From Takakia lepidozioides (taxonomy: Eukaryota; Plantae; Bryophyta): a DNA stretch of 64,000 nt. The stretch spans positions 80,538,001 through 80,602,000 of the forward strand of contig CM060731.1 in NCBI GenBank assembly GCA_030704615.1, given 5' to 3'. The notes beneath the pieces are model-generated. The model had not been told where the DNA came from. It saw only the letters and a list, made by a program, of their open reading frames with translations, and searched no databases. Both the position numbers and the translations under genes were made by a program. Of the stretch, positions 1-32,555 are shown in pieces (the first letter of the stretch is position 1; each line of letters opens with the position of its first letter).

Positions 1-297
1 GAGATAATTTGTGTTGATTTGGAGCAATTGTCAAGTGATGAGGAGACAAATGCATGATTGCTCGGCAATGGAGATATGGTAGTTTGCAATCAAATCCCAA
101 GGACTAGAAGGGGGATTGATTTGGTGGACAATGACTTGCAAGTTGAGTTGGACCACTCTTGGTTGCACATTGGGGTGGAAAAGAGCAAGAAGATGCCTCT
201 TATGACCACCTAGAGACCATATTTTTGCTTGAGTAGAAGCATAGAAGTCAAGGACTTGCATTCTAGCTCTTCATTACAAACCCTAGTAGTGTATGCT

Positions 298-690
298 CAG
301 ACTATACCTCTGTTAGTATACCAAACAGGAGCTTGTCCCTTTGACTATACCTCTGTTGAGGTATCACCATATGTGAACCATAATGTGAGACTATACCTTT
401 GTTAGTATACCAAACAAGAGCTTGTCCATTTTACTATACCTCTATTGAGGTATCACCATATGTGAACCCTAATCAGCTGAGACTATACCTCTGTTAGTAT
501 ACCAAACAGGAGCTTGTCCCTTTTACTATACCTCTGTTGAGGTATCACCATATGTGGACCCTAATCAGCTCAGACTATACCTCTGTTAGTATACCAAACA
601 GAACCCTCATTTTCAGACTATACCTCTGTAAAGGTATCATCAACATAAGGGACCCTAGCAATCCCAGACTATACCTCTCTTAAGGTATCA
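298..690. repeat. Higher-order tandem repeat (~90-bp unit built of two ~45-bp subunits, core GACTATACCTCTGTT) upstream of gag
   Basis: ACTATACC core recurs about 9 times at ~45-bp spacing; alternate subunits continue AGTATACCAAACA or GAGGTATCACCATATG. Confidence 0.9.
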
Positions 691-719
691 ACAGTGAAAG
701 GACTTAGTGAAATTTAAGG

Positions 720-852
720 GCCTTTGGAGGATTGTTTGGAAGATATTTGAGGGCCCTTGGAGGAGTATTTGGAGGATCTTTGGGGTCCTTGGAGGAGTGT
801 TTGGAGGATCTTTGGGGTCCTTGGAGGATCTTTGGGGTCCTTGGAGGACCCT
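720..852. repeat. Short tandem repeat (GGATCTTTGGGGTCCTTGGAGGA-like, 21/33-bp periods)
   Basis: Several near-identical copies visible; explains the repetitive ORFs at 688-1229. Confidence 0.85.
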
Positions 853-1525
853 TCGAGGAGCTTTGGTGGACAATGTTGAAGAGCTCTTGAAGGATTGATT
901 GAGGGATATTGAAGGATACTTGCCACGGCCATACAAGCGAGTGGATAGAGACAGGAGGGAGAGTGGTGGGATGAGAGCATTCTGGGGTTAGGAATTGCTT
1001 TAGTTTCTCTTCTCCATAGTCTTTCACCCTCTCTGTAGGCCAAAACCTTTCCGTAGGTGGAGGCAAGAGTCAGTCCGGGTATGGGCTGGGGTGTCCTTGC
1101 AGGAGCGACACTGTGGAGTGTTTTTGGTGTGGGGGAGTTGCTGTCTTGATTTTCTTGTGTTTGGATCCCCTCCACACCTGCATGCTTGACTGTGCGCCAT
1201 GTTAGCTTTGTGTGGGCGCTTGTTTTCATAGGAGGTTGGTCCGGATTTGATCACCGGCCAATCCTAGAGTATGCTGTCGGTGGTGAGGCTGAAGTGATGA
1301 CCAACAAGACCACTAGTGTTTCTTCTATGGTGAGGCTGGGTTGATGACCAGCAGACCATAGGAGTGCTTGCGGTGGATGCAGGTGCAGGTACAGGTCTAC
1401 GTTAGAAACCTATTATTCCTGCTTGAACCAGTAGCCGCAACAGGTTCTTTACCCGGTTACCTTGTAGAAAGTGGGGATTAGAGACAGGTTGACAACCGGT
1501 TGGGTTGTGAGTTTTCATCACGGAG

Positions 1526-3142
1526 GTGCCACCAGCTACTGAGGGGAGTGCCGGTACAAGCACCAGCGATACTAGTAGGTACACAAGACAAGGTGTGCGG
1601 TTTAGGCCACTTTCACCTTCAGTGTCTTCTGAGGAAGGTTCAGACTCGGAGTCAGGAGGATTCTCGCCCAGGGTGCAAGTCATTTCCGTGCCATTGTTGT
1701 GGGACACGATGGAGGAGATGTATGGGGCTACCAAGGGGCCACGTAGGTACTCTGGAGCTGTGGGCACCATCGAGCTTGATGACTTTATACAAGAGTTTGA
1801 CAGTTGGTGTGATTTGCAGCAAATGCGCAATCCACAACTGTTTACGCCATTTATGGCGTGGAAGGGGCTATTCCAGCACCTTGAGGGGCCGCCCATGGAT
1901 GATTACCATGAATTTCGGCGGGGACATGCGGTGGAGATTGAGGAGTGGCGAGAGTATTGGTCACCTAACTATGTCTCAATCACAAGAGGCACAAGGGCAG
2001 CGGTGACACCAGCAACTACACAAACATCTCCAACTACAAGCACTAGTAGTGGAACAAGTAGTGCCGGCACTTCTGCAGGTGGTACCAGTTCAAAAGGTGC
2101 TACTACTCCTCCTGCCACAATTACAACACATGTGCCTAGATTCAACCCGGTGGTGGAGTTCTTCCAGGAGTTGCGGAGGAACTACCAAGGTGTATGGACA
2201 GAGAAGCTGCGAAGTTTGCAAGACTTCCAGCGCAAATCCAGTGAGAGCTTGCGAGAAGCCTACACTCGTATGAGGCGCTTGATAAGTGTGACCCAAGGGG
2301 TTACTGAAGCTCAGGCAGTCCAGTTCTGGTATGGAATTTTGGACAAGGAGCTCAAGAGAAGGGTGCGGGATGCAACCCTGTTACAAGCGGCCCAACCCAC
2401 ATTAGCGGATGTGTTTCTGCTGGCTGAGCGGATTGAGCTCAACATGGTGGAGGAACGAGTTGTTACCATTGGATTTGGCAAGGACATGCCTGCACGAGGT
2501 GCAACTGCCAGCCAACACGTACAAGGGACTGCCCAATAGCGTGGTCAGGGAGGCAAGATTGCCCAACCCAAGTTCCATGGAGCTTATAGGGGACCTCAGG
2601 TGCAGAGACCCGTGGCATCTTTTGCAGGTCAACAACAACCAGGGGTGATGTGTTGGACATGTGGAGGACCCCATGTCAAGAGAGATTGCCCAAAGAGTGG
2701 CAGAAGGCCGGAACAAGCACAGCCTGCACAGTTGCAGTGTGGGCATTGTGGCAAGTATGGGCATGGAGATGCCCAGTGTTATGACTTGCACCCTGAGTTG
2801 CACCCAGGCCAGTTCCAAGGGAACAATGGTGGCCGGGGGCGAGGTGGACCAGCCCAGAGAGGACGAGGTGGTCGGGCACAAGGTGCAGGCCAAGGGCAAG
2901 CTCAACATGGCCAAGGACGCGGAGGTCAGGGTGTTGACCAAGACATGGCCAACCGGCTTCAACAGCTAGAGCAGAGGCTCGCTGCCATGGCTACAGCTCA
3001 GGTGGTACCGGCTCCCAGACAAGATGGTCCACCTCCTACTCCTGAGGGAGGAGATATGGGAGGCATGGGATTCATGTGCGGAGCAGCACTACCACTAGTG
3101 CAGGTGGAGTCTGCTGCAGCTGTGACTCGAGGAGCAGCATGA
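1526..3142 (+). pseudogene. gag: Retrotransposon Gag with two zinc knuckles (in-frame TAG at 2537)
   Basis: Capsid-like LQDFQRKSSESLREAYTRM; CWTCGGPHVKRDC and CGHCGKYGHGDAQC knuckles; RGG-rich tract; true start may lie further upstream. Confidence 0.85.
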
Positions 3143-3699
3143 GTTCCTGAGCCACGAGGTGCAGAGGTGGAATTGGATGCACAGCGTGGGGAGGCAAGCC
3201 GTCAGGCGAGGCTTCCTCAGTCATTCACATTGGCGGAGATAGTGTCGACGTCATCCATGGCACCTAGTTCTCGCCCGACTGTTACCGAGGTGGAGGTTAC
3301 TATGCCATTGGGGAGAGCTACACGTGCAACACTGACACCTGCTACCAAGGCTAGTGCAGCCGATGTGTTATTGGGGGCAGCCACCTCTGTGTGTCAAGCC
3401 CCACTGTTCTTGGCAACCATGATTGCGACGCCGGGGGTAAGACCAGCTGCAGTGTTCAGACTAGCAGCAACACTCTGCGAGAGTGGGGAGGTCATTTCAT
3501 CTTCTGCGGAGTTACTGGAAGGTGTAGTGGCAGAGGGATCCTCGGATTTGAGGGTCAAGACTACCACGGCTGCGCCATGGCAAGCTGCAGCTGCCAGGTT
3601 GACGGAGCTGCCAGCTAGGCCAGCCTTTGAGCGCTCCATGGTGACACCTGGAGTTGTCTTGTTAGACAACCAGGGAGGCGTTTTCACTTTGAGTGGACC

Positions 3700-4010
3700 G
3701 GCAGGCAAGAAGTACCGGCCACTGCGGGTCTTGTTGGACTCAGGAGCTCAGCCACTGATGTTGGGCAGAGCTGCTATTGCAGGTTTGGGCCTCATGGAGG
3801 CGGATATGGAGCCTTGTCCTTTCCAGATACAGACATCTCTGGGAGGATCAGAGCAGGCTCGGGGCATGACACGGCGTGAGTTGGTCATTGAACTACAACC
3901 AGATCATCCTGTAGATGGCTCAGTGATGCGAGCCAAGGCCATTGTGACATGCGGTCTCTTACGATGTCCTTGTTGGTGGGGCAGTGTTATATCCCATGGG
4001 CTTCACCCTG
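3700..4010 (+). pseudogene. Retropepsin aspartic protease domain
   Basis: VLLDSGAQPLML active-site motif; C-terminal YDVLVGG motif recovered after a frameshift near 3950. Confidence 0.85.
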
Positions 4011-4439
4011 GACTTTTGGGAGGAGTCAACATCCTACAGGCTTGGATGGCAGTCAGGGGATGGTCGTCGTGCACAGCTCCCTGTGACATTCATTGGGGGT
4101 ATTGCGGCTGCCCAGTGGGGCAAGATGCCAACACTAGCCGCCTTTACAGCTGCAGTTAGTTGGCCTGGAGAGTTGCTGGAAGGCAATGCCCATGCAGAGG
4201 ATGTGCCACCTCCAGCAGAGCATGATGACATGCATGGTACGGCGGAGTTGTCTGCCATGGTTGCTCACACTCCATTATGGGGTACGAGCAAGGATTTGCA
4301 GCAGGCTGCTGATGGACGGGTACAACAAGCCTGGGTAGAGGCCTTCGTACCGTCAGGAGAAGGAGAGTGCGGTGATTGCACCAGGACCACCTCATTGTCC
4401 ATTGGACACCACACCTCTTGTGTGCAGTGCCCGGATGAA

Positions 4440-5390
4440 GACATATGCTTTCTGGACTTGTTTGGCAGGGATCAGCACTGGATTGGTTGCAGTACTGCAG
4501 GCAGGTGTACGAGTTTGACGTTACCTGTATGTGGAGAGGGATGAGACTTCACGACGCGTCTCACTGCGCCATGTTGCTCAGTTGGTACAGCAGTACCTTG
4601 ATTTGTTGCCAGTGTCTGCAGTTCGTGGATACCAACAAGCCTTGCCAGCAGACATTTCGTTGCTGGGGGGCGCAGGATTTGGAGCGGGTTGGCTCCATTG
4701 ATCTGGTAGTGGCAGGCTGACCCTGCCAAGGGCATTCATCAGCCGGGCATGGCAATGGATTGCGAGACTCGAGGACGGGTCTGTTTTGGGAGATGGTGCG
4801 GATTTTGCGCCACTTGCAGCTTCATCAAGCTGTATCTCCAGCATACATCTTGGAGAATGTGCCACTGATGGGTGATTCTCGGGCCAGGGTGATGGCCAGT
4901 GTGCATCAAGTCCGGTCGTGGATTGGGTCAGCAGTGTTGCTGGATGCAGCTGCAGTGGGGTCATGGGCTCATCGTCCACGGCTATGGTGGACTAACTTGA
5001 TGCCACCCGCACTGCTCAAGCGTGCATTTGATGGGGTGCAGCGGCTAGCACACCTCACAGTGGATAGCATTTTGGACACAGGGAGGCAGTCTCAACGTGT
5101 GAGACACGATGACCGTTCGCCTTTGGCAGTAGTCAACAGGGTGGGTCAACCACGAGCAGCATTATCTACACTGCTCAGCTTCCCAGGATCCCATGCTTTT
5201 CGGGATGGTGGACCTGGCCTCTTGTGGGATAGCCAGTTGCAACAATTAGTGGAGCCCAATGCTGACGAGCTTGAGCGGGCGATGGGTTTTACCACAGGTA
5301 CCACGACCGTGCCATCTCTTTCTGAGGCATCACGTCGTCAGGTGTTGGGGCAAGCAATGGATCTCAATTGCTTGACCTGGATTATCAGCT
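4440..5390 (+). pseudogene. DNMT3-like C5 DNA cytosine methyltransferase domain inside pol (2 frameshifts, 2 stops)
   Basis: Reconstructed motifs in canonical order: I FLDLFG/ISTG (4449-4482), II YLYVERD, IV IDLVVAG*PCQG (catalytic PC 4721-4726), V RTGLFWEMVRIL, VI YILENV (4853-4861), VIII AHRPRLWWTN, IX DELERAMGF, X RRQVLGQAMD. Confidence 0.9.
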
Positions 5391-5479
5391 TTGGCGGGCT
5401 TCCCGGCAGGCTTCAAGGGCATCAAGAGATTCAACAAGTAGAGTTCCAAGTAACATTTCGGAGTAACATTGGCGGGCTT

Positions 5480-6290
5480 ACAAGAACTGCTTTGCCTTTA
5501 GTTTGAAGGACTTAGGAGCACTGAAGGGTCAATAGATTCGCATTGAATTGGCTACTGACACGCCAATCTTTCGGAGACCCTATAGATACAGTGACATGGA
5601 GAGGTCCTTGATTCAGATGAGAACTCAGGACCTTTGGGAGGCTGGTTTGGTGGAGTTATCTCGGGGAGAGTATGCTTCAGCCACAGTGATGCCAGCCAAG
5701 AAGGATGTCTTTGGCAATTGGACGGAGAGACGTATGTGCGGTGATTACCGGCCTGTAAATCGTCAGACCAAGTCCGATAGGTATGCCATGCCAACACCAG
5801 AGGAGATCTTTGATGCCATTGGGCATGCCAAGGTCTTTAGCACATTGGATTTACGATCCGAATATCACCAGTTGCCGATCAAGGAGGCGGATAAGCAAAA
5901 GACGGCATTCTAGGGGATCAATGAGTACGGGAAGGATTGCCTATACCAGTGGCGGTTCTTACCATTTGGGCTTAAGAACGCTCCGGCAGAGTTTTCAGAG
6001 AGTCATGGATAGGATTCTAGCAGGGGTGGAGTTTGCTCGGTGCTACATAAATGACATCATCATCTTTAGTGCTACGGTGGAAGAGCATGAGAGACACCTT
6101 CAGGGGGTATTTGAGCGCTTGAGGGCGCACGGATTGAAGTTACATCCGGGAAAGTGCAAGTTTTTCCACAACCAGATTGAGTATCTGGGTCACATGATAT
6201 ATCCTGGAGGATTGGGGGGTACAGTAGACTAAGGTAGAGTCCATTGCACAGGTTCCACGCCCCACGGATGTGAGCTGAGTTCGAGCTTTC
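5480..6290 (+). pseudogene. Reverse transcriptase domain
   Basis: PIFRRPYRYS, RMCGDYRPVN, FSTLDLRSEYHQ, KTAF*, LPFGLKNAP, catalytic YIDD degraded to YIND, KLHPGKCKF, YLGH. Confidence 0.95.
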
Positions 6291-6840
6291 ATGGGGTTAG
6301 CAAACTATTATAGACGGTTTGTTAAGGGATTTAGTGCCATTGCAAAGGCTCTAACCAAGTTGACCAAGGTGGACCAGGAGTGGCAGTGGGAAGATGAGCA
6401 AGAACAAGCTTTTCAAGAGCTCAAGGCGAGGTTGACCTCGGCGCCCATCTTGAGACGACCTATCAGGGGGCGTCCTTTTTAGCTGCATACAGATTGGAGC
6501 ATGCTGGGGCTTGGAGCGGTGCTCACACAAGTGGACGATGATGGAAGAGAGTTCGTAGTGGCTTATGCTAGCCGCTCGAATAACGTTGCAGAGTCTAAGT
6601 ATAGCTCATATGAGGGAGAATGCTTAGCTGCAGTGTGGGCCGTGGCACACTTCAGGTGCTATCTATACGACAATCTCTTCACCCTTGTCACGGATCACCA
6701 ACCACTCAAGTGGTTGATGGAGTCAGACAAGCTTACGGGGAAGCTTGCACGGTGGGCACTCATCCTTCAAGAGTATGACTTTCATGTGGTGCATCGACCG
6801 GGTTTGGTCAATCGCAATGCAGATGGGTTGAGTCGCAATC
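6291..6840 (+). pseudogene. RT connection domain and RNase H
   Basis: FMGLANYYRRFV, F*LHTDWS, GLGAVLTQ, YSSYEGECLAAVWA, TDHQPLKW, RWALILQEYDF, NADGLSR. Confidence 0.93.
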
Positions 6841-7229
6841 CATGCACGAGCCAGCAGGATGACACTGGAGCTCGGTGGCATGGTGAGACGGACGAAGAGA
6901 TGGTGCCCGGATGGCATGCATCTGCATTTCTGTGTATCTTGGCAGCGGAAGGCCAGGTTGGACCTGCAACAAAGATGACTACAGATCAAGTGTCTGAGGA
7001 CCCTGAGGCTAGCAATGAGCAAGGTGGTGCCAAAGATATACATGAGGATTCAGTTGTGTTGGACTACCTCCGCACTGGAGACACTGCAGCCACTGTGACT
7101 GCCAAGGAGAGGGATCGGATCCTACAACGAGCCAAGAGGTTCAAGTGGGAGGGGACACACCTGCTCCGAGTGTGGGAGGATGGTCGAGTGAGGATTGTGC
7201 CTCACCCAACACAGCGGGCACGGTTAGTG

Positions 7230-8280
7230 CGGCATGCCCATGAGGAGTTGGGGCATTTTGGGGTGCGACGCACTCATAGTCTACTGCAGGGGCAATATTG
7301 GTGGCGTGGTATGCACACAGAGGTGCAACAATTTGTGGCTAGGTGCATGGTGTGTGACAGGGTGCGTGCTTCATTCAACGCCCCTACTCCACAATTGCAC
7401 CCTCTTCCGATCATGGGATTGGGCTACAGGTGGAGTCTTGATTTTGCAGGGCCGTTGCCACTGACCATGCGCCACAACAAGTACGTGTTGGTGATGGTGG
7501 AGCACTTCTCCAAGTGGATTGAATTGGTTCCATTGCCTGATAAGGCTAGTGAGGGAGCTGCGTATGCATTCTTGGATTGTGTGCTTAGCCGATTCGGTGC
7601 TCCAGCTGAGGTACTCACGGACCAAGGGAGAGAGTTCTTGGGGGAGTTTCAGGCTTTGTGTGAAAGGCCTTGATAGACCACCGCACCACTTCTCGGGATC
7701 ATCCTGAGGCCGATGGCTTGGCAGAGAGAGTTGTTCAGACAGTAAATAGGGGTTTGCGCAAGTATGGTTTGTAGAAGGGACACCTAGGAGATTGGGACCT
7801 TCAGTTACCCTGGTTAGCCATGGGCTACAGGTTCAGCAAGCAAGCATCACTTGCCTCCTTCTCACCATACTTTCTTCTCTTTGGCCGAGAGCCGGATTTG
7901 CCTACATCCATTCGCAGAGAAGCTGCTACAGTTCTTAACCTTGACGATCCGGACGTGTGGGCGCGTGCATGTGAGCAGCGTGCAAAGTTGTTCAAGAAAG
8001 TCATGCCTATGGCTTTTGAGAACCTTGCCATTGCACAACATCGTGATACGTTGAGGTATGCTACCATACGTGGTGGGGGCTATCGTCCTGGGGTTCGGAG
8101 ATTCAACCCTGGTGACTATGTCTATCTGCAGCAGACTGCTCCTACGACATTGGATGTGACTGCAGGACGTGTTATTTTGAGGGTTCGAGAGGTTTTGCTC
8201 TCAGGCGTCTTGGTCTTGGAGGGTTGGGATGGCATAACTTGGAAGGACCATGTGCGTAATTGTGCGCCATGTCACCTTCC
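7230..8280 (+). pseudogene. Integrase (HHCC zinc-binding domain, DDE core, C-terminal region)
   Basis: AHEELGHFG...CMVC; WSLDFAGP, VLTDQGREF, PEADGLAER; frameshift near 7665, TAG at 7772; SPYFLLFGR. Confidence 0.93.
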
Positions 8281-8335
8281 GAATGTCGATGGCAGGATTG
8301 ACCCAAACGTGGCAGTGGTATCTGCAAGTTTGAAA

Positions 8336-8470
8336 TGCATGTTGTGTGGGTCTGCTAGAGGGGCAGCCACCATGCTGGTGTGTGATCGATGCTCTAGAGG
8401 TTGGCATATGGGATGCTTGACTCCACCTCTTGAGATGGTTCCTGATGGGGATTGGTTATGTCCGTATTGC
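8336..8470 (+). other. PHD finger (C4HC3) fused to the integrase C-terminus; pol stop at 8477-8479
   Basis: CMLC-x9-MLVCDRCSRGWHMGCLTPPLEMVPDGDWLCPYC. Confidence 0.93.
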
Positions 8471-8721
8471 ATTGGATAGTGAGAGTGGATACAACCATGG
8501 AAGGCTAACAAGAAATGCAAGGCCAAGCTACTAGGAGACCAACACACGAGATCCTGACTCAAGTTCACAGATTGCAAGACGGCGACTAACGATGGGGTTG
8601 CTCTTGTACCCGGCCTCTTGGTCTATAGAGTTTGAGTACAATAGGGACAGTGATAGAGGACTTAGTACGGCTGTGGCTATTACATCTTGTAGCTATCTGG
8701 AGTTAGAGGGACCTAACCACC

Positions 8722-8736
8722 AGCTAGGGGGGCGAT
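8722..8736 (+). promoter_or_regulatory. Polypurine tract
   Basis: AGCTAGGGGGGCGAT immediately before TGTGG. Confidence 0.7.
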
Positions 8737-9334
8737 TGTGGTATAGCTTTCTAGGATTGTGTGCTTAGATTATGTGGTGGACAACGATGTATGTTGTGGC
8801 ACGATGCTTAGGTGCACGACAGCTGTCATGGTTTTAGTCATGGTTATCTAGAATTACCTACTTCTAGTTAACTAGGACATTTTAGATATTTTATATTTAT
8901 ATTTTGTGTGTTGGGACTTCATTTGGTCTCACATGCCAAGTGAGGTGTCGAGCCTCACTTGAGACATGGAGATAGGTTTTCCCTTTTTGAGTGTTGAGGA
9001 GGTTCATCTTCTTGTAGTTGAGCCTCCATGAGCTTCTCTCACCTCCATAGCTCTAGGTATTGAGAGGGAGTGTGTTGAGGGCTTTGTAGGGTGGATTCCT
9101 TTAGCAAAGGTGCCCTTGGCTTGACTTAGTTTATGTGATAGAGTGGATTTCACTTGGAAGGACTAGGGCTTGTTCTTCATGTGATTGCTTCATGCTTTGA
9201 GAGCTTTCATTGTCTTCTACTTCTCTCATTTCTCATCTCTTATCATTGTGGTATAGCTTTCTAGGATTGTGTGCTTAGATTGTGTGGTGGACAGCGATGT
9301 ATGTTGTGGCACGATGCTTAGGTGCACGACAACA
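8737..9334 (+). repeat. Putative 3' LTR (~598 bp) with an internal ~85-bp terminal direct repeat
   Basis: Starts TGTGGT after the PPT, ends ACAACA (5/6 inverted match); 8737-8821 is repeated at 9247-9331; no 5' LTR in the window to confirm. Confidence 0.65.
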
Positions 9335-11563
9335 TCAACAACTGGTGAGCGGAGATCACCAGTTGGCTAGGGTATCGCCTTCCCCGAAACCCTAACCATA
9401 TCCTACATGTAGGTTATTCTACGGATTTCCGACCTATATGGAACCGTCTGGTAGGGGCTTCCATACCCGGGTTGATACTCGAGCTTTTGTATATACCAGA
9501 CGGGGGTTGGTATCCTGTGAGCACAACATAAGCATGCTCACGTGAGTACAACCCTTGGTCATGGGGTTTGTATGTTTTTAAACCGTGGTCATAGGAGTTA
9601 CATGTTTTGAGGCACGATGCATTTATAGGGTACAGTTGCACCAAAACGATAAACTATATGATCTATCTATACATTCATGAACATTCGATACATTTCAAAT
9701 CATTACTTGTAAGCCAAAACATAATATACTAAGGGAATCATTTTAATATTAAACTATTATGTGTGATTCACCACCTAACGAAAAACTATAAACATCATCT
9801 ATAAACCCTAATTCGACGAAAATTTCACAAAACGAAACCATGGCCATGAACCCTAAACATGCGATGGCGGGGTATCGCAATGAGAAAGCTTTGGTTATAT
9901 AGCTACAAACATAAGAGGCGGCGGATAGTGTGAGGAAATCCCACGCCTATAGGATAACATATTTATCATGTATTGGGGTTACTTGTTTCTTAAGTGTAGT
10001 TGTGAGGGCCTGTGTGAGCAGTTAAAAATAGTTCCACAAATTTTTAGTTTCTCAATTTTCGTTTCGCTCCGGAGGCATCTTAGGAATATGAGCAATATGA
10101 GCAATATGCGCTTGTGCTTGCTCACGCTACCCAACCTCATACCAGACCAGCACTGGTACATACCAAAGAGCATAATCCAAAATAACCGCCCCATTTCCTA
10201 GTCAGGGAGTCATTTTTATCAAAAGCCAAGTAAGATCCTAGTCACATACACGGCACTATAGGTCCCTGGTCAAGTCATTGTATGTTAGCCGCCAAGCATA
10301 TTGACGGTACTCTTACGTCAATGAGTATCTCAACGGCATACCTAAGGAAGTGTAGAGCATCAACCACCACAGCTCTATACATAATCTCATGACGGTTACC
10401 TTTAATTCATCTGTCGAGAAGAAAATCTGAGAAGGAAAATGTGGGCTGTCACAGAGTAGGTCATGAAAACAACTTTGCAAGCTTTCAATGTGCAGTACCA
10501 CATCGACCTCGAGGTACTAGCCAATATTTCCAACAAACAGGTGCCAATTATGCTTGTATAGATGGAAAGCTTTTACTTGCTATTTTCTTGCGATCACCCT
10601 TCATTCCAAATAGTGGATGTAGGTTGAGTAGTTGTAGCCCTCAGGGGAAATATTAGCTCCCACAGACCAATGTGGTACTATCTTTAGAGGGGTGGCCCAT
10701 TGGATGAGCCTTTGATGAACAAATGAAATGTGCAGAATGTGGACATTTTGTTGAAGAAAGCGTCACTTATGGTATCCTGGTATCACTTGACCCAAGCCCT
10801 TCGGATGGGACGGTTATGACATCCAACACACACGTGTTTGAATCCACAGCCACTAGTGACATGGTATTTTGCCCTTACGCCTTGCATAAACAAAGGTCTA
10901 ACAAGGGAAAACCCTATTAGAAGGGATTTTTGTTTAAGAGAACCTTCCAAACTTGGCGTCTGCTGTCGGTCCAGTTTGTTGGATGGTAGCCAAATCGCTT
11001 GCTACTTTCAGCTTGCCAGTCCCCAATTCTTCTTGCTCGGCCAGCTCGGCCAACAAATCAATAATAGAAGGCCGAGTCCTATCTTTTTGCCATATTGGAA
11101 CTTGCCACATGCGCATTGGACTGCCACATGAACATTGAGTTTTTCCGTTGAAAGCCCATGTAGCCGTATCCACATACTGAATAAGCCAATTAGTCCAATG
11201 ACCGGAAACCACCACATTTTGGACGCCCATTTGTAGTTAAGTCGCGCTAACTCTCAAACAATAAATAGACAGCTGCCACAACAGTGACAAATGAAAGAAA
11301 ACATGTACATCAATCATCATCCCCAATCGAAATTATACCAACCAGTACAAATCAATAATCATTAATCAGTGAAATAATGCTCAATAATCTTTACAAGTAA
11401 CCGTCTTTTCCTGCCATATTTGACCTCTCACTATAGCTAGCTTAATCCCTTTCCTGTTTTTTCTCACCACTACTGGTAACGACAAAATTGAGATGATGAA
11501 AATTAAGTTGACACTTGTCCTGAGACAACCACCTCAGGTTCAGAAACAAGATTCAGACAGCTA

Positions 11564-13634
11564 TCACACACCTTTGTTATAATGAACCTCATTAATCGGA
11601 TTCCCAAATCTATCAACTCTATTATGAAGCAATGGCTCCAATTTCATGACATCCACCGATGCCTGCTGCTTGAAAACACCGAAGCAAAGTGGCACAAATA
11701 TCTGGATGGATGCACCCACCATGGCCATCAGCGTCGGTATCCTCAAATATGGCCTGTTTGTGTACATCCTTGTGCGTTCCAATCTGAAAAGCATCATAAA
11801 GAGATGCACGGCAAAGGCCTTTTGCTGTCGGATTACCATTCCATTAAGTTATACATAATTTAAAGAAGCAAACGGCACTCATTCAGATATCTTGGTTCAC
11901 CTAGTCTGTAGAAACTAGTTTCTCATGTCTACAGAGAATGTTTTTATTCTACCCTGAAGTGAATGGGTGAATGTACTCATGAGATGTGTTTGCAGTAGCC
12001 TTGTGGCCATGGATCCTGTGCCCTTTGGGCAGATCGAGAAGGAATCTGAGAGAGGGAGGGAGAGAGTATGTACTCAATAAGACTTTGTTTGCCGCAACCT
12101 TGTGGCCATAGACCCCTTACCCAGTTTTTACGAGAGAGAGAGAGAGAGAGAGAGCTGCCACAGTTGTAAGGTTGCGATCGAGGTTTTGGTTCATAAGTTT
12201 GGGAAGTTTCTCCTCACCTTGCTAAAATGTATAATATGCTCAATACACTATGGGGCAAGGAGTGAGAAACAAACACACTAAAACAGAACAGAAAATATAA
12301 CGGGAACAAAATGATACACATGATAAAACCATCTGCAAGGGCACATACCTATGCATGACAAGAGGTGGAATCACCAAAATTGGAGCAGCTGCAGCTATCC
12401 GGCCAGCGATGCAGGCACTCACAGCCCTGGCACCAGCGAGCCGGCTCTGGCCAAGTTCATCACCATTACTGTCCAACACCTTGATGCCCTCCAGAAACTC
12501 ATCTCTGCGTGTAATTCCCAAATTCAGCAAGTCGGCTGCTGCAACCGCACAAAATGGAACTATTCTCCTTGCTACAGAAGCCCTGCATTGCTTGAGATAA
12601 TGCAGTGGTGCTGTGTAAGTGTGGTGAGTGAAATCTCTGTGTGGCAACATTTGCCATATCACCTGTGGAAGATAAGTGGGGTTACAGTAGCATCAACATC
12701 ACTCCTTCATGCTGTCAATGTTAGCACTTAGTCTGACACCAATCCCTATAGACCTACTGTCATTGGAAAAATTCCGTGTGTGGAGGGTAGAACTCCACAG
12801 TAGGCTATGGGGAGGGTTGATACCCCACTGGGTATATACTATAACTGAAGGGTCCATGGTGGCCAATATATCCATGGAGTGGGCACAGGGTATACACAAA
12901 CTTACCCCCTCACCCTCAGCACCCCACCTTTCTCTCTCTCTCCAGCTTGCTCGCCTTCCCAAACCTGCTCCCTCATTTTTGAAAGAGGTGGTAAAGGACC
13001 ATCATTAAATTATCACGGGAAGAACTGTAGGTATTGAAGAGAGAGAGAGTTTCTCCTTGACTACCCTCATGGACCATTTATCTGTCCACTTAAGATTGAA
13101 ATCATGACAGATAGCATAGCCTTCAACAGAGGTACAAGGTTTAAACAAACTTTACCAGGGTCTGCCAGGGGGAACCTTATCCAAGAGAGCATGGAGACCA
13201 ACAGCAGCACCCACAGAACTGGCGCTTGCACCTACATAAGCTTCAACAAGTTTCTGAATCCCTTCCTCGTTCGAAGCATTCCGATTGGCATAATAATGCA
13301 AGCAATTGTATGTCTGATTAAGCCATTGGGCGCCCACATTTTGCATACATCCCCTGGCTGATAGCATCAGAGTATCCAGAACCAGATTGCAAGGGATCAC
13401 AAAGGAAAGACGGAGAGGGAGGAAGATCTTCTCTCCAGTATCAGGATGGACAATTGCATCCTTAACTTTGCGGGCTTGCTCCAATTTTTCTGAGGGGACT
13501 GAGAGGTCCCCATTTTGATGAGACTTCAAAAGCTGGACTGCTGCATCAACTTGGGAATCTGTCACAAATGCTGTTTGAATGTCCATCATGTTGAAAATCC
13601 TTTGAACTCTCGCCCAGTACGTGCCTTCATCCAT
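11564..13634 (-). CDS. Sideroflexin (mitochondrial tricarboxylate/serine carrier family); 3 exons 13634-13156, 12582-12349, 11783-11564; ~310 aa
   Basis: DAIVHPDTGEKIFLPLRLS, QWLNQTYN..YYANRNAS, RRIVPFCAVAAA, GQSRLAG, C-terminal YNKGV; GT-AG splicing keeps frame (933 nt). Confidence 0.88.
11968..12152 (-). repeat. Two copies of dispersed intronic repeat family A plus (GA)n
   Basis: AATGTACTCA..AGAC..TGTTTGCCGTAGCCTTGTGGCCAT matches copies at 18445, 54100, 54445 and 54708. Confidence 0.75.
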
Positions 13635-16600
13635 GCTCCCCTCTTGGTCAAGTGAAAGAATGTTCAATAACAGAATTGTCTGGGTTCAAGGCCTAACAGA
13701 GACAGTCAATATGCATTCAGAGACAGGATAGTGCCAGAATAAGTGGGAGATCGCTTTGAGAGAGTGAACCGGAGCCTTGCACCATCTCCACATGAGTTGA
13801 TGTTCCTACAAGAATACAGCCTAAGTCAGTGGAATGTTCTCTACCCTGGTATGTAGTACTGGGCTGAGACAGTCAATCTAAGACTATGAGACAGCGTGAC
13901 ACTCTGTTATCTCCCCACTGTCTTCCTAAGTTCCTGGAGGGTGGAGAACAAAGAAAAGTCCAGACTTGAACACAAAAGAAAGAGGGAGAGAACCTAACTA
14001 ACAAAAGAGGGCTGAAGAAAGCTCCCCATTTAAGACTGAAGAACTCTGTTCTTGATCATTTTGAATAGAACAAATGCTGAAATGCCATAAACTTATGAGT
14101 ACAGAGAGTTTTTTTCTTCAAAAGGAGATGCAATGTATGCCCTTTACCTTGAAGCAGCTTTACTTTCATGAACATTTCAGACACAACAAACTCCTTAGAG
14201 CTGCAAAGTCTGGAAAACCTGTAGAACTGGTTTGCAATAATACGCTACTTAGCCATGTCCAAAATGTTGGACTCAATATGAGACAGTCTTATCTTTGAAT
14301 ACCAGCACATTCTTGTGAGAGTTTGTCAAAAACTGTCAATTACATAACCTTAAGGACTGAATGATTGCAAGTTACTGTCTGCTGAAAATCCTGATGCTAA
14401 CTAGAACCCCCCATTGAACCCTTCTTGTGAATAGTATTCGATGTCCTGAAGCACGGAGGAGACACACGTAGAACTTACTATACCGACCCAATGAAGATCC
14501 CTCCAGCGACAAGGTTGTGGTAAAAGGCAGACAGCCCAGAACGAAAGAAGGTCCCTGGTGTTCAACTCCTTGTCATGTGAAAACCAGAGAGGGCGGGAGA
14601 GACAACAGGTGCTGATTTTTCTACATTTCAGAGTGGGTTACCACTGATCGCGGAACAGTTAATATAGTCCCGACGCAAGCCTTTACTTCATCTCACCAGC
14701 ATATAAAACTGTGCCCGGATGTACCACAGCCGACGATAACCCAGTCGGAGGGGCTTCATACTTGTGGCTGGTAATCCAAAGCGTACATGTTTTGTCAGAG
14801 GAGAAATCATCGTACGCAAGGATCGCGAGCTTAAAGTTCCATACAACCGGCCCGAAGAAGAATTCTACTCAGTTTCTACCTGGTTCAGGTTTCCCAGCGA
14901 AATCCAACCAAATGTAGACCTATCCACCTCAATCCCTTACACTAGCACAATACTTTGTGACACTGGTGGAAATCACTGGAAAGGCCGAGTACTGTCACGT
15001 AGCTAGTGCAATTGAGCTAGTTAAGAAAAGATTATCAATTGGTGTTCCGCAACTTCATAGACAATACTTGGAACAAAAAACAAGTTCCGGCCCGGCACAC
15101 TCCAGACTCCAGACCTGGGTATGAAACGCACGAAGAACTGAGGATAGAACTTTCAATTCTCATGAGCTGAATCCAGCCAATTGGCACAGAGACCCACCCA
15201 CTTCACGTCTCAGATTAAAAATCCATAGACACATGCAGCCAAAGATGCAGACATTAGCACATAGTTTCATTTCATATTCAACAAGAAATAGGCTTTTCGA
15301 GCATCCACCACCATAACTGCATTGGAGTGAACAAGACTTGCAACATAAATGCCAACCCACCAGAGATTTGATGGAGCTTCACCACCCACTGCTGCAGCTT
15401 GCATGAGCAGGTTTGATGAACAGCCGCCAGTGAGAAGGGCGAAGATTTCCATAATAAACTCCGGAGTTTAGTAAGTGAGCGAGAAGACCTAAAAGGACAG
15501 CTCCATATAGTAAAAAGTCTGGGGCTGAACAGGAGCCCTCCATTCTGTCTGTCAGTGTTCATAATTATGGGAATCTTCGGATTCTCCAGGGGCCATCCAA
15601 TGCGCCCAGCCTTCCATTGGAGAACAAAAGTTTTCGGTTTGCGCTGTCTTTTTCCTTTCAAAAAAGTAGTAGAAAGCAGAAAAGGACGACAACATAAAGA
15701 GAGACAGAGCGTCTAGGAGAGAAAAGTCAAGTAGAGCAGATGAACTTGAGAAACCGTGTAGGGTGCATAGTGGTGACGCGACGATTTGTACACTGAGTGC
15801 ATCAGCAAAGGTGATCTTGTGAGTTACCGAAGTAGACATTGTGCAGAAGTCATCCAGCTTTGGGGAAAGGTCAGTGATAAGTCATTTGGTTGAATACAGA
15901 TCCCATATGGGTCACAAGTAATAGTCACAAGTGGGTGAATTTATTTCAGACAACGGTCTTTTCATCAAAGATGCTAAAAGATAAATTATCTCCTTGCAAT
16001 TTGATCAGTAGCCCCTCAAACCGTATTTCATAGATGAAGTCTGATGGGCTGAAGTCTGGGCCCCAGAATGAGAGCTGCGTTATGATTCCCTGCAAGTCTG
16101 GAATTTCAACCAGCAGCCCAGAGCCATTCTTGCAGACCCATTTTGGCTTACCAAACTGCATTCCGATTGGCATTGAAGATCACAGATGTGAAACTAGCTG
16201 TTAGTGGCATTGCATGACATCACAATATACTTTTTACTCTAATTTAGAGTACTTCAAAGCTGAACTTCTGTTGCAATAATTTTGCCATCCTCACATGAGA
16301 GATTTTAAACGGCGACTATGACCAAAGCTACATACATCTGTGGACAAAACCGGGAGGAAGTCATCGACTGGGCACAGCTCCATGACACTAGTGTGATTAG
16401 GCAAAACCACACGTTGAGAACCTTTGCTGCAGTGAGGCTATGAAAAGTGGCCTTATTGGAGTGGACCCTTGAAGCATGTCAGATTGGGTCCCTATCTTCT
16501 GTTATTCCCTCTCCCTCTTACATCCTCCTCTCTTCACCCCACGAATATTAGAACACTGAGAATACTGTAGTCCCACATTATAGTCAAGATCTGTAACCTG

Positions 16601-17469: not shown

Positions 17470-20400
17470 TTACTTGATAGACAGGCGGAGCTTCATGTCC
17501 TCATACACAAGGTAGGTGATGCTGGCAGCGGGTGCCACCTTCAGCATGTTGGGCAGCAAGCCTTTGTAAAACCCACGCACACCCTCATGCTCAAGGGTAC
17601 GTCTGAACACATCCACCATGCCCTTGTATCCGCCTTCTACCTTGAGTGGCTGTGCTTGCAGTCTGCATTTCCAGCAAGAACCTTGCTTAGCATCCCTGTC
17701 ACTCGGAGCTGCTCTCTTGCATATGGCCTCTAAGATAAGGTAACACACCTGGTGCGAATGAGTTGCAATGGGTAGACACATGTGGCACCAAGGGCTCCTG
17801 AGACTGTCCCACATCCAAGCTGCACCAGGGCTCCTGGCCCTGCACATGACCCATTACCTCCTGTTCTTTCACTGTATGACCAGACTCCACCCTATGCACC
17901 ACAGGGATGTGTATGGACATAGCTTACTTGTGTATAGGTGTACAGAAAACATCTGCAAGTGTTGCATGGGAAGCTTTCACACATTTGCAGTAGTGTGCTC
18001 TCAGAAGAGGCCCCAAATTCCCTCATTGATTATGGGTGCCATCCTTAGCTCTTAATGCATGACATGTAGCTGTAGGGTTTTCATGCTATACATAGATACA
18101 GCACTTTGCAGTTAATTCTGACACGTAATCCATTGATTGCAACAGTGCTGTCACCAGCTTCCACCACAATAATTTCCCTCATGCCAAGGCCTCATAGGTG
18201 GATGGGTGACGAGGGAGGACCAGTGGCCATTTTCTGAGATACTATGAAAGGTGACAGGCCACCTCTTAGTTCAAACTTTAACAGGGGGACGCGTTTTGAG
18301 GCCATCCACGATTGCATTAATGAGAAAGGCTACAAAGCTAATCCATGCCACGATCTTAAAATATGAAGTTAGTGGCCTCAATCATTAAGTCCTTGGCCAT
18401 GCAGCACAACCTTGATGGAAATAGAATCCCGACCTATAGCTAGGAGAGAGAGAGAGAATGTACTCGTAAGACGTTGTTTGCCGTAGCCTTGTGGCCATTG
18501 ACCCCGGGAACGCCCACTTTGAGTGGAACATAGGAGGGAGAGAGAGAGAGAAATGAAATGAAATGAAGTGGAGCTTTATAATGTCCGTGGAAAGCTCATA
18601 GAGCTTATGGGACAAAATGGAGAGAGAGACAGTCTTGCCCAAGCAACCGTAACTTATGGTGTCACTTCACCTTGACATGACTACTGCCTTCTGTTTGGAA
18701 GGTGGACACCTTCTAACGGCTGTAACAGGGGCAATGCGGTTGCCCAACCCTCTCCGAAGGACTTCAAAGTCCCCAGGTACCCACACAATCAGTAACCCCC
18801 CCTATTATAGTTGAGTTGGCCATAATGCGTGACATCTATGTGGCTTTGAACCCACGAGTGCCCTAACCACTGGGCCATCTGTTAGATGCTTGAGCGGACA
18901 CATATCTGATTGGTGGAGGAAGTCTATCGGCTTTTCACAATTTAATGTTGACATCTACAGGGGTTGTCAATTACCATATCATTGCCCAATTTAAGGTGAA
19001 TGGTGCTACTATTTGCTGCAAGACTTGCTATTGAAAAAAGGGAGACTCTTGCCGAAGCAAGCGTACTGATGGTGTTACTTCACCCCGAAGGGCTACTGCC
19101 TCCCATTTGAAAGGTGAACACCTTCAAACGGCCGTAATCGAGACAATGAGGTTGCCCAACCCTCCCACAAGGACTCAAAAGTCCCCAAGTACCCACACAT
19201 TAAGTAACCGGTCGACACAGGTACCCCCCTTTTATGGCTGGGTTGCCCATAATGGGTGACATCCAACATACACGTATGTGGCTTCGAACCCACAACCTTT
19301 TGTAAGGCGGCCTTGTGCCCTAACCACTGGGCCATCTGTTGGATGCTGACCTGCTATTACACTAGCACCAACAACTGAAATGTGGGCTATTCATGTCCAC
19401 CATTGAATTGGAGCTAAATGTGACAGATATTTTTGAGTAAGGCCAACCCTGTCCTTGTATGGAGAGGCTGTGTTAAGAAAAATCTTTCCTAGACTTGAAT
19501 GTGGCAATTGATGATGGCGATAAATCCTAAGATATACAGCATCTCAAATATATGATCCCTCAAGAGCATTAATATTCTGACCCTTTATTTCCTTTGACAT
19601 TAAGGGACACTGCCGATGCTGTTAGTGATGCATCCCACTCATTCCATTTTGAGCTCCCTGACAACATAAGAATCTCTGCAAAGACATACCTGTATCTAGT
19701 GGTACAAACTGGGCAGAGAAGTCCTTGAGAGTTTCATACACCGTCAAGTCAATAGCTGCATATGGCACCATACCCAGCAGGGATGGAACCAAGCCACGGT
19801 ACAATGCTCTCGGGCCCTCGTGCACGACAATGTCCCGTGAAAGCGACAGTAATGCTGGTGCTGTGCCTGGTGAACTGTGACACTGCAAGCGTGTTTTGAT
19901 CAGATCCAAAGGATAGATGGCCGTCTGAGCAATTGCACCTGCACAAAATAAGAATAGTTAGCAAGTGCCAGGGGAGAGAGCTGGGATGAGCTTTCAAAAG
20001 CTCAAGGAGCTTAGGGGACAGTAACCCATAACAAACAAAAGCATTAGAATTGAAATGGCTGCAGAAAGATGGATGACCTCCTGAGGTTAAGCTGCTGGCT
20101 CTCAAAACTAGATGCTCCCGCCAGTGATGAGAGAAAGAGATGTTAGACTTTAATTACGCGAGACAAGAAGGAGGGGGTCATGTTTGGACAGAAACTACAG
20201 ATGGGCACATACAAGGCGGGAACATCTGCATTCAGACATTTGGCTAGACGTAAGAGAAGAGGTCAGCTCCCACAACTCTTGTACTTTCTATGGAAGTTAC
20301 TGCAGGAGAGGGAAAGGAGGGTTGGCCTAAAAAGCATAAACCTGCAACGCCTCCTGCAACCAGCCGCCCCCAAGTTCCGATCTCGCCTTGCTTCCCGTCA

Positions 20401-21639
20401 CCCACCACAATGCCTTTCATCATTTCATAGGCATAGAATTTAATCGCCGACTCTGGGGCTACTTTGAGCACGTTAAGACCATTCCCTCGAAAGAACCCCA
20501 TCACACCATTATTTTTGTAAATGTGCAAAAGGCCGGCGATCACACCCTCACCATTGGTCTGCACTTGCAGAAGCACCTTGAGGCGGTCCAAGGGAGCTGT
20601 GGCAGTGCGGCTCAGCGCCCCAGCCACTGCACCTGCCAGCAGATAACGGGCAGCATGGTGGCCACCAATGCCCTCAGGAATGACGGCCTGTTCTCCGATG
20701 TCCACCAAGGACACCTTCTCCCAGTACTGATAGATGTTAGCTAGTGTGGCTTCGTGTGGAAAAAGCAACAGGAAGTCACGCCACTCACTGTAAGTGATCC
20801 TTCCATTCTTGTCCTGGTCTATGTGCTGCACAAATGATGCTAGCTCCTCATCTCCTATTTGAATCCCTGCGCTCATAAACATTCCACTTCAACTCAGTGG
20901 AGCAAAAAGGGGGAAGGGACAGAAGATTTCCATCGTTCTAGAGTGCAGAAAAATTTGCCACAGAAAACCTCAAATAAAAGATAGGAATGGTGACACAGTA
21001 CTCCGCCAGCCCCTGTCTAGTGCCCAAAGCCATAGGATCCCATTGTTTCGTACTACCTCTGGGGCAATTCAAGAACAAGGTAGAATCTAAAGCCCTGTCA
21101 TGCTGCAGCAATCAAAACTGAGGACACATGACACTACTTCATGAACTGGAAAAGCGACCTCTACTTCCATCCAGCTGCGCCAATCTAAATGCCCATTCAT
21201 CACTATCCTTTCACCCCATGCGGGTGTACATATCAATGTCCGAAGACAGAAAAAACCGACCTGCATGCAAGAGAGCATCTCGAAGCTCAGCGGGCTCGAG
21301 AGCTCCGTCGTCGGTCACATCGATGGATTTGAAGAGATTGTAAAGTTCTCCTTCTTTATCGTCCATGTATTTCCGGAATTCGGCAAAGTCAATGTGTCCA
21401 TCATGATTGGAATCACAGACCTCCAGCAAGTCCCGGGCATACTTGTACTGCAAGGGAGTCGAGAGTGATCGTAATCCCGCCTCTATCTGCGTGTGATCCA
21501 AATAGCCAACCTTGGCGCTGTCAAACGAATCAAACAGATTGCGAATTCGTAGCTCCCTCTCATCCTTTGTCTCCTGGGCTGCTGCCTCCACCTCTCGGGC
21601 CTTCTCTTCTCCTCTGTCCCCAATGCTACTACCTTTCAT
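17470..21639 (-). CDS. Calcium-binding mitochondrial ATP-Mg/Pi carrier (APC/SCaMC type); exons ~21639-21261, 20866-20342, 19938-19690, 17839-17749, 17662-17470
   Basis: EF-hands ([26 protein letters not shown]) followed by three carrier repeats ([29 protein letters not shown]). Confidence 0.92.
18445..18630 (-). mobile_element. Family A repeat plus a 5'-truncated LINE 3' tail ((CATTT)n) flanked by (GA)n
   Basis: Reverse complement of 18551-18620 matches the LINE 3' UTR at 26704-26772. Confidence 0.8.
18636..18889 (-). mobile_element. tRNA-derived SINE, internally deleted copy
   Basis: Similar to 19049-19346; box A TGGCCCAGTGG, box B-like GGTTCAAAGCC. Confidence 0.75.
19049..19346 (-). mobile_element. 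tRNA-derived SINE, near full-length (~300 bp)
   Basis: Pol III box A TGGCCCAGTGG (19334-19324), box B GGTTCGAAGCC (19290-19280), stem CATCCAACA/TGTTGGATG; five related copies in the window. Confidence 0.8.
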
Positions 21640-31958: not shown

Positions 31959-32555
31959 ATGAGCCGTCATCCGGAGATAAAGTGGGCGCAACGGACAGAC
32001 AAGGTGTTCCTGACGGTGGAGTTGCCTGATGCAAAGAACCCGCAAGTGAAGCTGGAGCCTGATGGCAGATTCACATTCTCTGCCACGGCTGGCGGAAACG
32101 ATCAGTTGTATGAATCCGATCTGGAGCTTTTTGGGAAGGTGAACGTTGATGAAAGCAAAATCAGTGTGGGGCTGCGGCACACGTTTGTTGTGATTGAGAA
32201 GGAGGAAAAGGTGTGGTGGAAGAGGCTGGTCAAGTCCGAGGGAAAGGCACCTCCTTTTCTGAAGGTGGACTGGAACAAATGGGTGGACGAGGATGAGGAG
32301 GCAGATGCCCCCAAGCTTGACAACTTCGATCTCGGTGGAATGGGCGGGATGGGCGGAATGGGTGGAATGGGCGGAATGGGCGGAATGGATCTGAGTGCCT
32401 TGGGTGGCATGGGCGGCATGGGTGGCTTGGGTGATCTGAGTGGCATGGGTGGAATGGGTGGAATGGGTGACCTTTCGAAATTCGGTGAGGGAGGGGACGA
32501 AGAGGATAGTGAAGATGAAGAAGGCCTTCCAGACATGAAGAAGGCTGAGATTTAA
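31959..32555 (+). CDS. HSP90 co-chaperone p23 (CS domain), intronless CDS with GGM repeats and acidic tail
   Basis: MSRHPEIKWAQRTDKVFLTVELPDAK...WWKRL...FLKVDWNKWVDEDEE. Confidence 0.93.
   Translation: MSRHPEIKWAQRTDKVFLTVELPDAKNPQVKLEPDGRFTFSATAGGNDQLYESDLELFGKVNVDESKISVGLRHTFVVIEKEEKVWWKRLVKSEGKAPPFLKVDWNKWVDEDEEADAPKLDNFDLGGMGGMGGMGGMGGMGGMDLSALGGMGGMGGLGDLSGMGGMGGMGDLSKFGEGGDEEDSEDEEGLPDMKKAEI

Follow-up and report, generated by a model that had tools for sequence, protein, structure and literature searches.

Decayed Gypsy element with a DNMT3-like domain in the window

The window (i.e., the whole 64-kb stretch of Takakia lepidozioides DNA that was analyzed) carries a Gypsy element on its forward strand, in which a DNMT3-like cytosine methyltransferase domain (DNMT) follows the protease (PR) and precedes the reverse transcriptase (RT). 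The parts of the element are as follows.

980..1708, + strand, 5' leader of the Gypsy element; the high-copy part starts near 980
1709..3142, + strand, gag, with capsid-like and Cys/His-rich regions; in-frame stops at 2537 and 3140
3716..3950, + strand, aspartic protease with the motif LLDSGAQ; weak PF13650/PF13975 match (E 0.03)
4445..5391, + strand, DNMT3-like C5 cytosine methyltransferase domain; ~315 codons with four breaks
5392..5473, + strand, 82-nt stretch apparently private to the window copy; flanked by an 11-nt direct repeat
5474..6800, + strand, RT and RNase H, frameshifted and with stops; PF00078 (E 5e-14) and PF17917 (E 3e-33)
7200..8290, + strand, integrase, H2C2 zinc finger and core; PF17921 (E 1e-16) and PF00665 (E 2e-12)
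8336..8479, + strand, C-terminal PHD finger and stop; PF00628 (E 6.6e-11)
8726..8735, + strand, polypurine tract, read from the sequence; same position in sister loci
8737..8821, + strand, split repeat B1; 98% identical to 9245-9331
8815..8830, + strand, near-palindromic B/A junction, CACGACA-nn-TGTCATG; joins the element's two end sequences
8824..9245, + strand, split repeat A2; between B1 and B2, as in sister loci
9247..9331, + strand, split repeat B2, the 3' end of the element; depth drops past ~9330

The order gag-PR-RT-RNase H (RH)-integrase (INT), with a DDE integrase, is that of Ty3/Gypsy elements. No chromodomain was matched at the integrase C-terminus, where a PHD finger is found in its place, and the element is therefore not a chromovirus. 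REM1 is reportedly among the PHD-finger Gypsy elements of Chlamydomonas. The Chlamydomonas element Gypsy-7a_cRei also encodes a Gypsy polyprotein with a PHD finger, but a cytosine methyltransferase is not mentioned in the covered text of its description (PMC9940879).

Summed contig depth in run X1 (a run of this organism) rises from 37 to 76 thousand in bins 1-981 to 400 to 700 thousand from 982. The 5' terminal repeat (A1) is not within the window, and 8822-9244 has no match in window positions 1-12000. The gag-protease region (1709-3949) aligns in one frame with residues 1-709 of the Marchantia protein P0004 (52%); the gag match to PF03732 is weak (E 0.003 in a profile search), and the PF13975 match is stronger in the relative P0365 (E 1e-8). 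Frame breaks also occur between the protease and DNMT and in RT, and the window copy is a dead, decayed pseudogene of a high-copy Gypsy family. Upstream of gag, ~92-nt tandem repeats (283-691) and a short GGAGGA-rich array (720-870) sit in the part with ~tenfold lower contig depth and represent either a subfamily-specific leader or a second repeat.

The 82 nt at 5392-5473 stand where the end of ORF1, its junction with ORF2, and the beginning of ORF2 would be expected (see below), and no source for this filler was found in the window or in sister loci. A 5-kb contig of a second organism (run X9), which extends from DNMT through the 3' repeat with ~97% identity, has 435 nt at the place of these unrelated 82 nt; thus, the window copy has lost the DNMT-RT stretch. 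Forty contigs of run X1 diverge from the window sequence at 5391.

Three-frame translation of 4300-5560 revealed C5-methyltransferase motifs I to X in linear order, not circularly permuted as in DRM: FLDLFG (~4448-4466), GISTGL...YVERD, DLVVAG followed by a stop and PCQ (4721-4729), ENV (4853-4861), AHRPR (with Arg at 4973 and 4979), ELERAMGF (5267-5290), and LGQAMD after it. The SAM loop (I), catalytic Cys (IV), Glu (VI), and Arg-x-Arg (VIII) are all in the window. The domain is broken by frameshifts near 4467 and 4665 and by stops at 4516 and 4718. These results confirm the original prediction, made from the letters of this DNA, of methyltransferase motifs in unpermuted order with frameshifts at ~4470 and ~4670 and the same two stops. 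The match to PF00145 on which that prediction was staked was obtained above the curated cut-off of 22 bits, both for the unbroken ORF from 4721 (E 1.2e-8, 35 bits) and with X placed at the 4718 stop (E 6.4e-13, 49 bits), and, compared with the unbroken relative P0342, the domain pieces show 75% and 74% identity. The prediction had further described a complete, intronless, element-encoded DNMT3-like methyltransferase; an intronless, element-encoded domain of this kind is supported and its motif set is full, but the copy itself is a pseudogene with breaks and gag stops.

All 10 PDB sequence matches of the unbroken window ORF are DNMT3A, at weak scores (E about 1e-3). A family profile of 48 sequences ranked DNMT3A (E 1.5e-25) above DNMT3B (9e-23) and DRM (2.6e-14 to 4e-11), with M.HhaI (1e-9) and then DNMT2 further down, and gave no match to DNMT1 or CMT up to E 1. 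For L002, an unbroken sister domain with 71% identity to the window, a structure was predicted (pLDDT 95) and searched with Foldseek, and the matches listed were all DNMT3A, B, or C (best E 8e-21, TM 0.74, 22% identity). ESM Atlas returned generic C5-methyltransferase clusters only, and NCBIfam returned only the dcm superfamily, below cut-off. The earlier impression of a DNMT3 resemblance is thus borne out by the profile ranking and the L002 fold; the domain is DNMT3-like, and it looks catalytic.

In a redundant set of 219 full-length domains, the catalytic Cys is kept in 214, the motif VI Glu in all 219, and the two Arg of motif VIII in 215 and 218, respectively. The residue preceding the catalytic Cys is Pro in 99 of these domains and Glu in 110, a replacement that would fit a domain kept for some role other than DNA cytosine methylation (e.g., binding nucleic acids in the particle, methylating RNA, or protecting target cytosines from host enzymes). 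We consider such a role improbable, since the catalytic Cys and Glu and the Arg pair hardly vary among the 219 domains, down to ~30% identity, and the predicted fold matches DNMT3-DNA complexes. The host proteins PpDNMT3a/b of non-flowering streptophytes (Yaari et al. 2019, PMC6453930) likewise have a linear DNMT3-type catalytic domain, but they are encoded by stand-alone genes with a C-terminal DUF3444 and not within a polyprotein. DUF3444 was not found on the intact ORF1s of the element family, where PF00145 was the sole domain match.

Elsewhere in the window, a gene-dense host region (12240-13685, 20244-21843, 29430-29882, and 52620-55344) contains genes for a sideroflexin, an EF-hand mitochondrial carrier, an NAD kinase, and an eIF2B subunit. 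An intronless p23 co-chaperone gene with a GGM repeat (31959-32555) has its closest named protein in Riccia (81% over 118 aa) and was weakly placed beside mosses in a gene tree. This placement, weak because it comes from a single short gene, indicates a non-seed land plant, likely a bryophyte. Long nested inverted repeats at 43995-48415 (arms of 41-194 nt, 88-97% complementary, ~4.4 kb span) possibly represent a DNA transposon with long terminal inverted repeats. A 75-nt repeat occurs in four dispersed copies (12077, 18466, 54158, and 54724), two of which end in a GA microsatellite. No tRNA gene was found in the 64-kb window.

Spread of the family and co-descent of its domains

In run X1, 22,672 contigs map to positions 3900-6300 and 80,925 to positions 1-9800 of the window. 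Summed contig depth, which serves as a domain-to-domain comparison and not as a copy number, was 0.4-1.2 million for DNMT, similar to that of RT and integrase (0.9-1.3 million). The share of depth without the window's breaks was 98% at 4467, 90% at 4516, and 99.9% at 4720; at 4665, inside a G run, it fell to 42%. The 67 longer homologues (up to 72% identity over the full query) included 20 named Marchantia, which span several assemblies and are therefore partly the same loci, 2 named Calypogeia, and 3 named Sphagnum. A 50%-cluster protein library yielded 1054 matches at E 0.001 and 123 at 1e-30, and further relatives were identified in Closterium and Monoraphidium (third search) and in Scenedesmus (cluster look-ups).

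Among the best 80 of at least 269 confirmed metagenome loci, 76 have a further retroelement domain on the strand of the methyltransferase, and the remaining 4 are contigs of 1.1-2.8 kb; a protease lies upstream in 59 of the 80, and RT lies downstream in 64. Four tested loci of the closest group were 90-97% identical to a named Sphagnum jensenii protein. A single distant locus (L001; 36% over 89 aa) came from a scan of viral contigs and was left out of the analyses. The protein P0028, labelled as from a bacterial metagenome-assembled genome (Candidatus Obscuribacterales), is 94% identical to the domain of the Gypsy element L034, and its source is probably a mis-binned eukaryotic contig.

The domain is thus present in sister elements, the point on which the original prediction could have failed, and it is a trait of an abundant Gypsy family, not a one-off feature of a single copy. 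The private rearrangement directly after the domain in the window copy might have hinted at a chance capture of a host DNMT3 retrocopy or fragment by this copy alone, or at an assembly chimera. We excluded this as having practically no chance of being correct, because sister elements have the same domain order in liverworts, mosses, and algae, the DNMT depth equals the RT depth, the DNMT and RT trees are congruent, and a single run X9 contig runs from DNMT to the 3' repeat.

DNMT and RT-RH trees were built for 38 elements, with element domains only and no host DNMTs; the sample comprised 11 of 15 DNMT-RT proteins (4 near-duplicates were dropped), 16 of 84 RT-DNMT proteins, 10 of 39 loci, and the window. 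The two trees recovered the same main groups and had 17 of 35 splits in common, and the DNMT and RT patristic distances were correlated (r 0.83; 0 of 2000 permutations as high). Because related elements share ancestry, this agreement demonstrates that the two domains descended together and does not speak for co-adaptation. The window is placed together with Marchantia and Sphagnum-type elements (support 99 and 98), L034 being the next closest. The window element falls outside Marchantia and Sphagnum in the DNMT tree and also in the RT tree (support 94), a position that by itself would suit a hornwort host, in a comparison that contained no hornwort.

Substitution ratios across copies indicate that the DNMT domain is under purifying selection, with dN/dS of 0.13 for L034 versus L033 (RT, 0.04) and 0.29 for L052 versus L060 (RT, 0.25). 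For the window versus Sphagnum-type copies, the DNMT pN was 0.17-0.20 and pS was saturated. Within the Sphagnum-type copies, dN/dS was 0.6-0.7 for DNMT and 0.65-1.15 for RT, because dead copies drift.

ORF layout and element ends

The coding region of L034 is intact and consists of ORF1 (1369 aa; gag, protease, and DNMT), one TAG, and ORF2 (1047 aa; RT, RNase H, integrase, and PHD finger) in the same frame. Of the 64 loci with DNMT and RT (from the best 80 of at least 269), 24 have a 432-nt in-frame linker of the Sphagnum type. All 24 have a stop at codon 86 (19 TAG and 5 TAA; next most frequent stop position, 7), although these loci represent one subfamily, including repeated insertions, and count as one event. 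The stop is followed by CAACC in 24 and by CAACCC in 23 of the 24, and 6 of 9 frameshifted Sphagnum-group linkers retain the same words. Marchantia and Calypogeia-cluster proteins terminate 84-86 residues past motif X.

In three other subfamilies, three different perfect CARYYA hexamers follow the TAG, in L033/L034 (TAG CAG TTA), L059 (TAG CAA TCA), and L029 (TAG CAA CCA), against a background of 42 perfect CARYYA in 19,444 TAR sites. UAG CAR YYA is the TMV-type readthrough signal, which requires no RNA structure and works in plants (PMC13517186). The Sphagnum-type context CAACCC matches CARYYA at five of six positions; an ATG lies two codons past this stop, and reinitiation is therefore possible there. 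By analogy with the TMV signal, the stop at the end of the Gag-protease-DNMT ORF is likely read through. In MoMLV and in fission-yeast Tj1 and Tosmo, an in-frame stop between ORF1 and ORF2 likewise keeps Gag in excess of Gag-Pol; in Tj1 and Tosmo, however, the stop precedes the protease, whereas here the protease and methyltransferase are on the Gag side. A stimulatory RNA structure past the stop was considered and rejected: three of three first folds had z of -2.5 to -3.0 and then failed a control, in which z was -2.8 for L034 and -2.5 for L008 but -1.1 for L011 and -0.6 for L033.

The domain had originally been placed between the protease and RT, within pol. It does lie between them, but in the nearest relatives it ends the Gag-protease ORF, and placement within pol appears doubtful for the window element as well. 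We infer that the window's own subfamily would have the same stop, in the stretch that is deleted in the window copy. The DNMT-RT linker of the run X9 contig, itself decayed, is 436 nt by count and not a multiple of three, and a frameshift signal in the window's subfamily is possible from this out-of-frame linker. All 17 in-frame linkers of a second moss clade lacked a conserved stop, and DNMT lies inside the RT ORF in Closterium and chlorophyte elements; these layouts indicate that Gag-level dosage is not required.

Three layouts were distinguished: RT-RH-DNMT-INT-PHD (84 of 99 proteins with both domains; named, Scenedesmus and Monoraphidium; e.g., P0097, P0396, and P0348), set against single-ORF PR-DNMT-RT (15 of the 99, in Closterium and the second moss clade; P0367, P0078, and L052), and the stop-separated form. 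The DNMT and RT trees both split the RT-RH-DNMT-INT-PHD layout from the others. Many RT-DNMT proteins have no precomputed PF00145 call.

The 3' end of the window element reads polypurine tract-B-A-B, and the whole A-coding-B-A-B plan, in place of two full LTRs around the coding region as in Ty3/Gypsy elements, was found in L039, L042, L043, L051, L052, and L060 among 18 loci examined, two of the six being one insertion. Sister elements start with TGTCATG and finish with CACGACA (i.e., TG and CA ends), and inspection by eye showed target duplications of 4 bp in L039/L043, L042, L052, and L060. The B/A junction motif, in which both element ends are joined by 2 nt, often as a 10-bp palindrome, recurs in 11 sister loci and the window, and one run X9 contig continues into unrelated DNA at 8823. 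As read from these ends, the integrated DNA corresponds to a two-LTR circle that has been circularly permuted, an odd product for a DDE integrase. No tRNA-type TGG primer site was seen after A1 in the sister-locus sequences. Troyka, considered as a kindred split-repeat Gypsy element, was rejected as unrelated (animals, CG termini, and 3-bp duplications, as described).

Known relatives and possible role of the methyltransferase

Gypsy elements with a DNMT3 have already been published. The study cited in the original prediction (de Mendoza et al. 2018, PMC5890265) exists and deals with Klebsormidium nitens. Its KnitGypsy-Dnmt3 resembles the family described here in being a Gypsy element whose Dnmt3-like domain is intronless and unpermuted, keeps the catalytic residues, and is under purifying selection, and in having DIRS-like split direct repeats; the figure legend gives the repeat plan seen in the sister loci, of which the window has B-A-B. 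It differs in that DNMT is in Pol and shares an ORF with RT and RNase H, whereas in the window's nearest relatives DNMT is at the Gag-protease end, before an amber stop, and in that it is a low-copy algal element, whereas the present family has land-plant hosts and a high copy number. No Klebsormidium-named protein was among the sequence-search matches, and kinship with KnitGypsy-Dnmt3 is by description. In the main text of that study, as far as covered, neither a PHD finger nor Marchantia or Physcomitrella comes up.

KnitGypsy-Dnmt3 is also cited as a streptophyte case by a 2025 paper, and "streptophytes (Gypsy-DNMT3)" are named as previously described in a preprint on EpiLTRs (bioRxiv 10.64898/2026.05.21.726589). 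EpiLTRs, SymbioDIRS-Dnmt3, and SymbioLINE-Dnmt (the latter two in PMC5890265) are likewise retrotransposon-borne cytosine methyltransferases, but they belong to other retroelement classes or DNMT clades; the EpiLTR DNMTs are sister to DNMT4 and occur with an adenine methyltransferase and a chromodomain. In line with the earlier statement that a characterized land-plant family is not known, no description of a land-plant Gypsy-DNMT3 family or of its readthrough stop was found in the full-text literature, a scope outside which most subscription papers and theses lie. Land-plant sequences could be included in the figures and trees of PMC5890265 and PMC12344493 or in the bioRxiv supplements, which also lie outside this scope. 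Within it, nothing was found in print on an abundant family in bryophytes, on the range of the elements from chlorophytes to bryophytes, or on the readthrough layout of the nearest relatives.

On balance, we lean toward a mechanism in which DNMT is synthesized at Gag level, packaged, released by the protease, and applied to new cDNA, probably at CG. Leaky readthrough of the amber stop would yield a rare Gag-PR-DNMT-RT-IN-PHD product and an abundant Gag-PR-DNMT product, and, because DNMT lies upstream of the likely readthrough stop, its production and packaging would be at the level of Gag. The protease would free DNMT within the particle, the freed enzyme would methylate the cDNA before integration, and the new copy would arrive pre-marked, perhaps avoiding detection as unmethylated DNA or complete de novo silencing by the host. 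SymbioDIRS-Dnmt3 domains methylate CG de novo in yeast, and cDNA methylation has been proposed by the authors (PMC5890265). The KnitGypsy-Dnmt3 domain gave no methylation in yeast, a result that the same authors call inconclusive; this would also suit the other role considered above, as would the absence of excess CpG loss in the window copy. The CpG observed/expected ratio is 0.49 in the window copy versus 0.47 in its flank, with no element-specific signal and therefore no sign of self-methylation beyond that of the host, and CHG depletion in the window copy is likewise without an element-specific signal.

Gag-level expression would also give abundant nuclear enzyme, and an active DNMT could instead act in the nucleus on integrated DNA. 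Its targets would be the insertion site, repeats of the element itself, or elements that compete with it, and the PHD finger of the integrase would read chromatin. The integrase terminates in a PHD finger both in the window and in most full-length relatives, heterochromatin in moss receives de novo CG and CHH methylation from the host enzyme DNMT3b (PMC6453930), and in Marchantia met mutants transposons are up-regulated and non-CG methylation is strongly increased at transposons (10.1101/363937), a rise that the authors credit to an RdDM-like pathway with no link to element enzymes. Nuclear action nevertheless seems rather unlikely to us, since the Gag fusion predicts packaging, the element domain is without the DUF3444 of host plant DNMT3s, and the Klebsormidium methylome resembles that of an ordinary plant (PMC5890265).

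Building on methylation of cDNA in the particle, we tentatively sketch a wider history, which is less than an even bet. One ancient green-plant Gypsy lineage (in chlorophytes, zygnematophytes, and bryophytes) may have captured a DNMT3 once and retained it, although its place within the polyprotein shifted. In the bryophyte branch, the enzyme would have been moved to the Gag side, ahead of a readthrough stop of the TMV type, such that many methyltransferases per particle would pre-methylate the cDNA. Integration would proceed from a permuted two-repeat circle cut at the palindromic junction, and the family would add to de novo methylation in Marchantia and Sphagnum.

Enzymes of this class serve to silence transposons, and one carried by a transposon itself raises the question of what is methylated, and why. 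With the readthrough layout, each particle would be expected to receive a large amount of enzyme, and the split repeats suggest that integration follows a route uncommon among DDE integrases. One Marchantia methylome study counted five host methyltransferases, with element DNMTs not among them in the covered text (PMC5784723). Unbroken Gag-protease-DNMT gene models are present in Marchantia polymorpha (Mp_4g09160 and Mp_8g17980), for which methylomes and mutants have been published, and the question is therefore directly testable in this liverwort.
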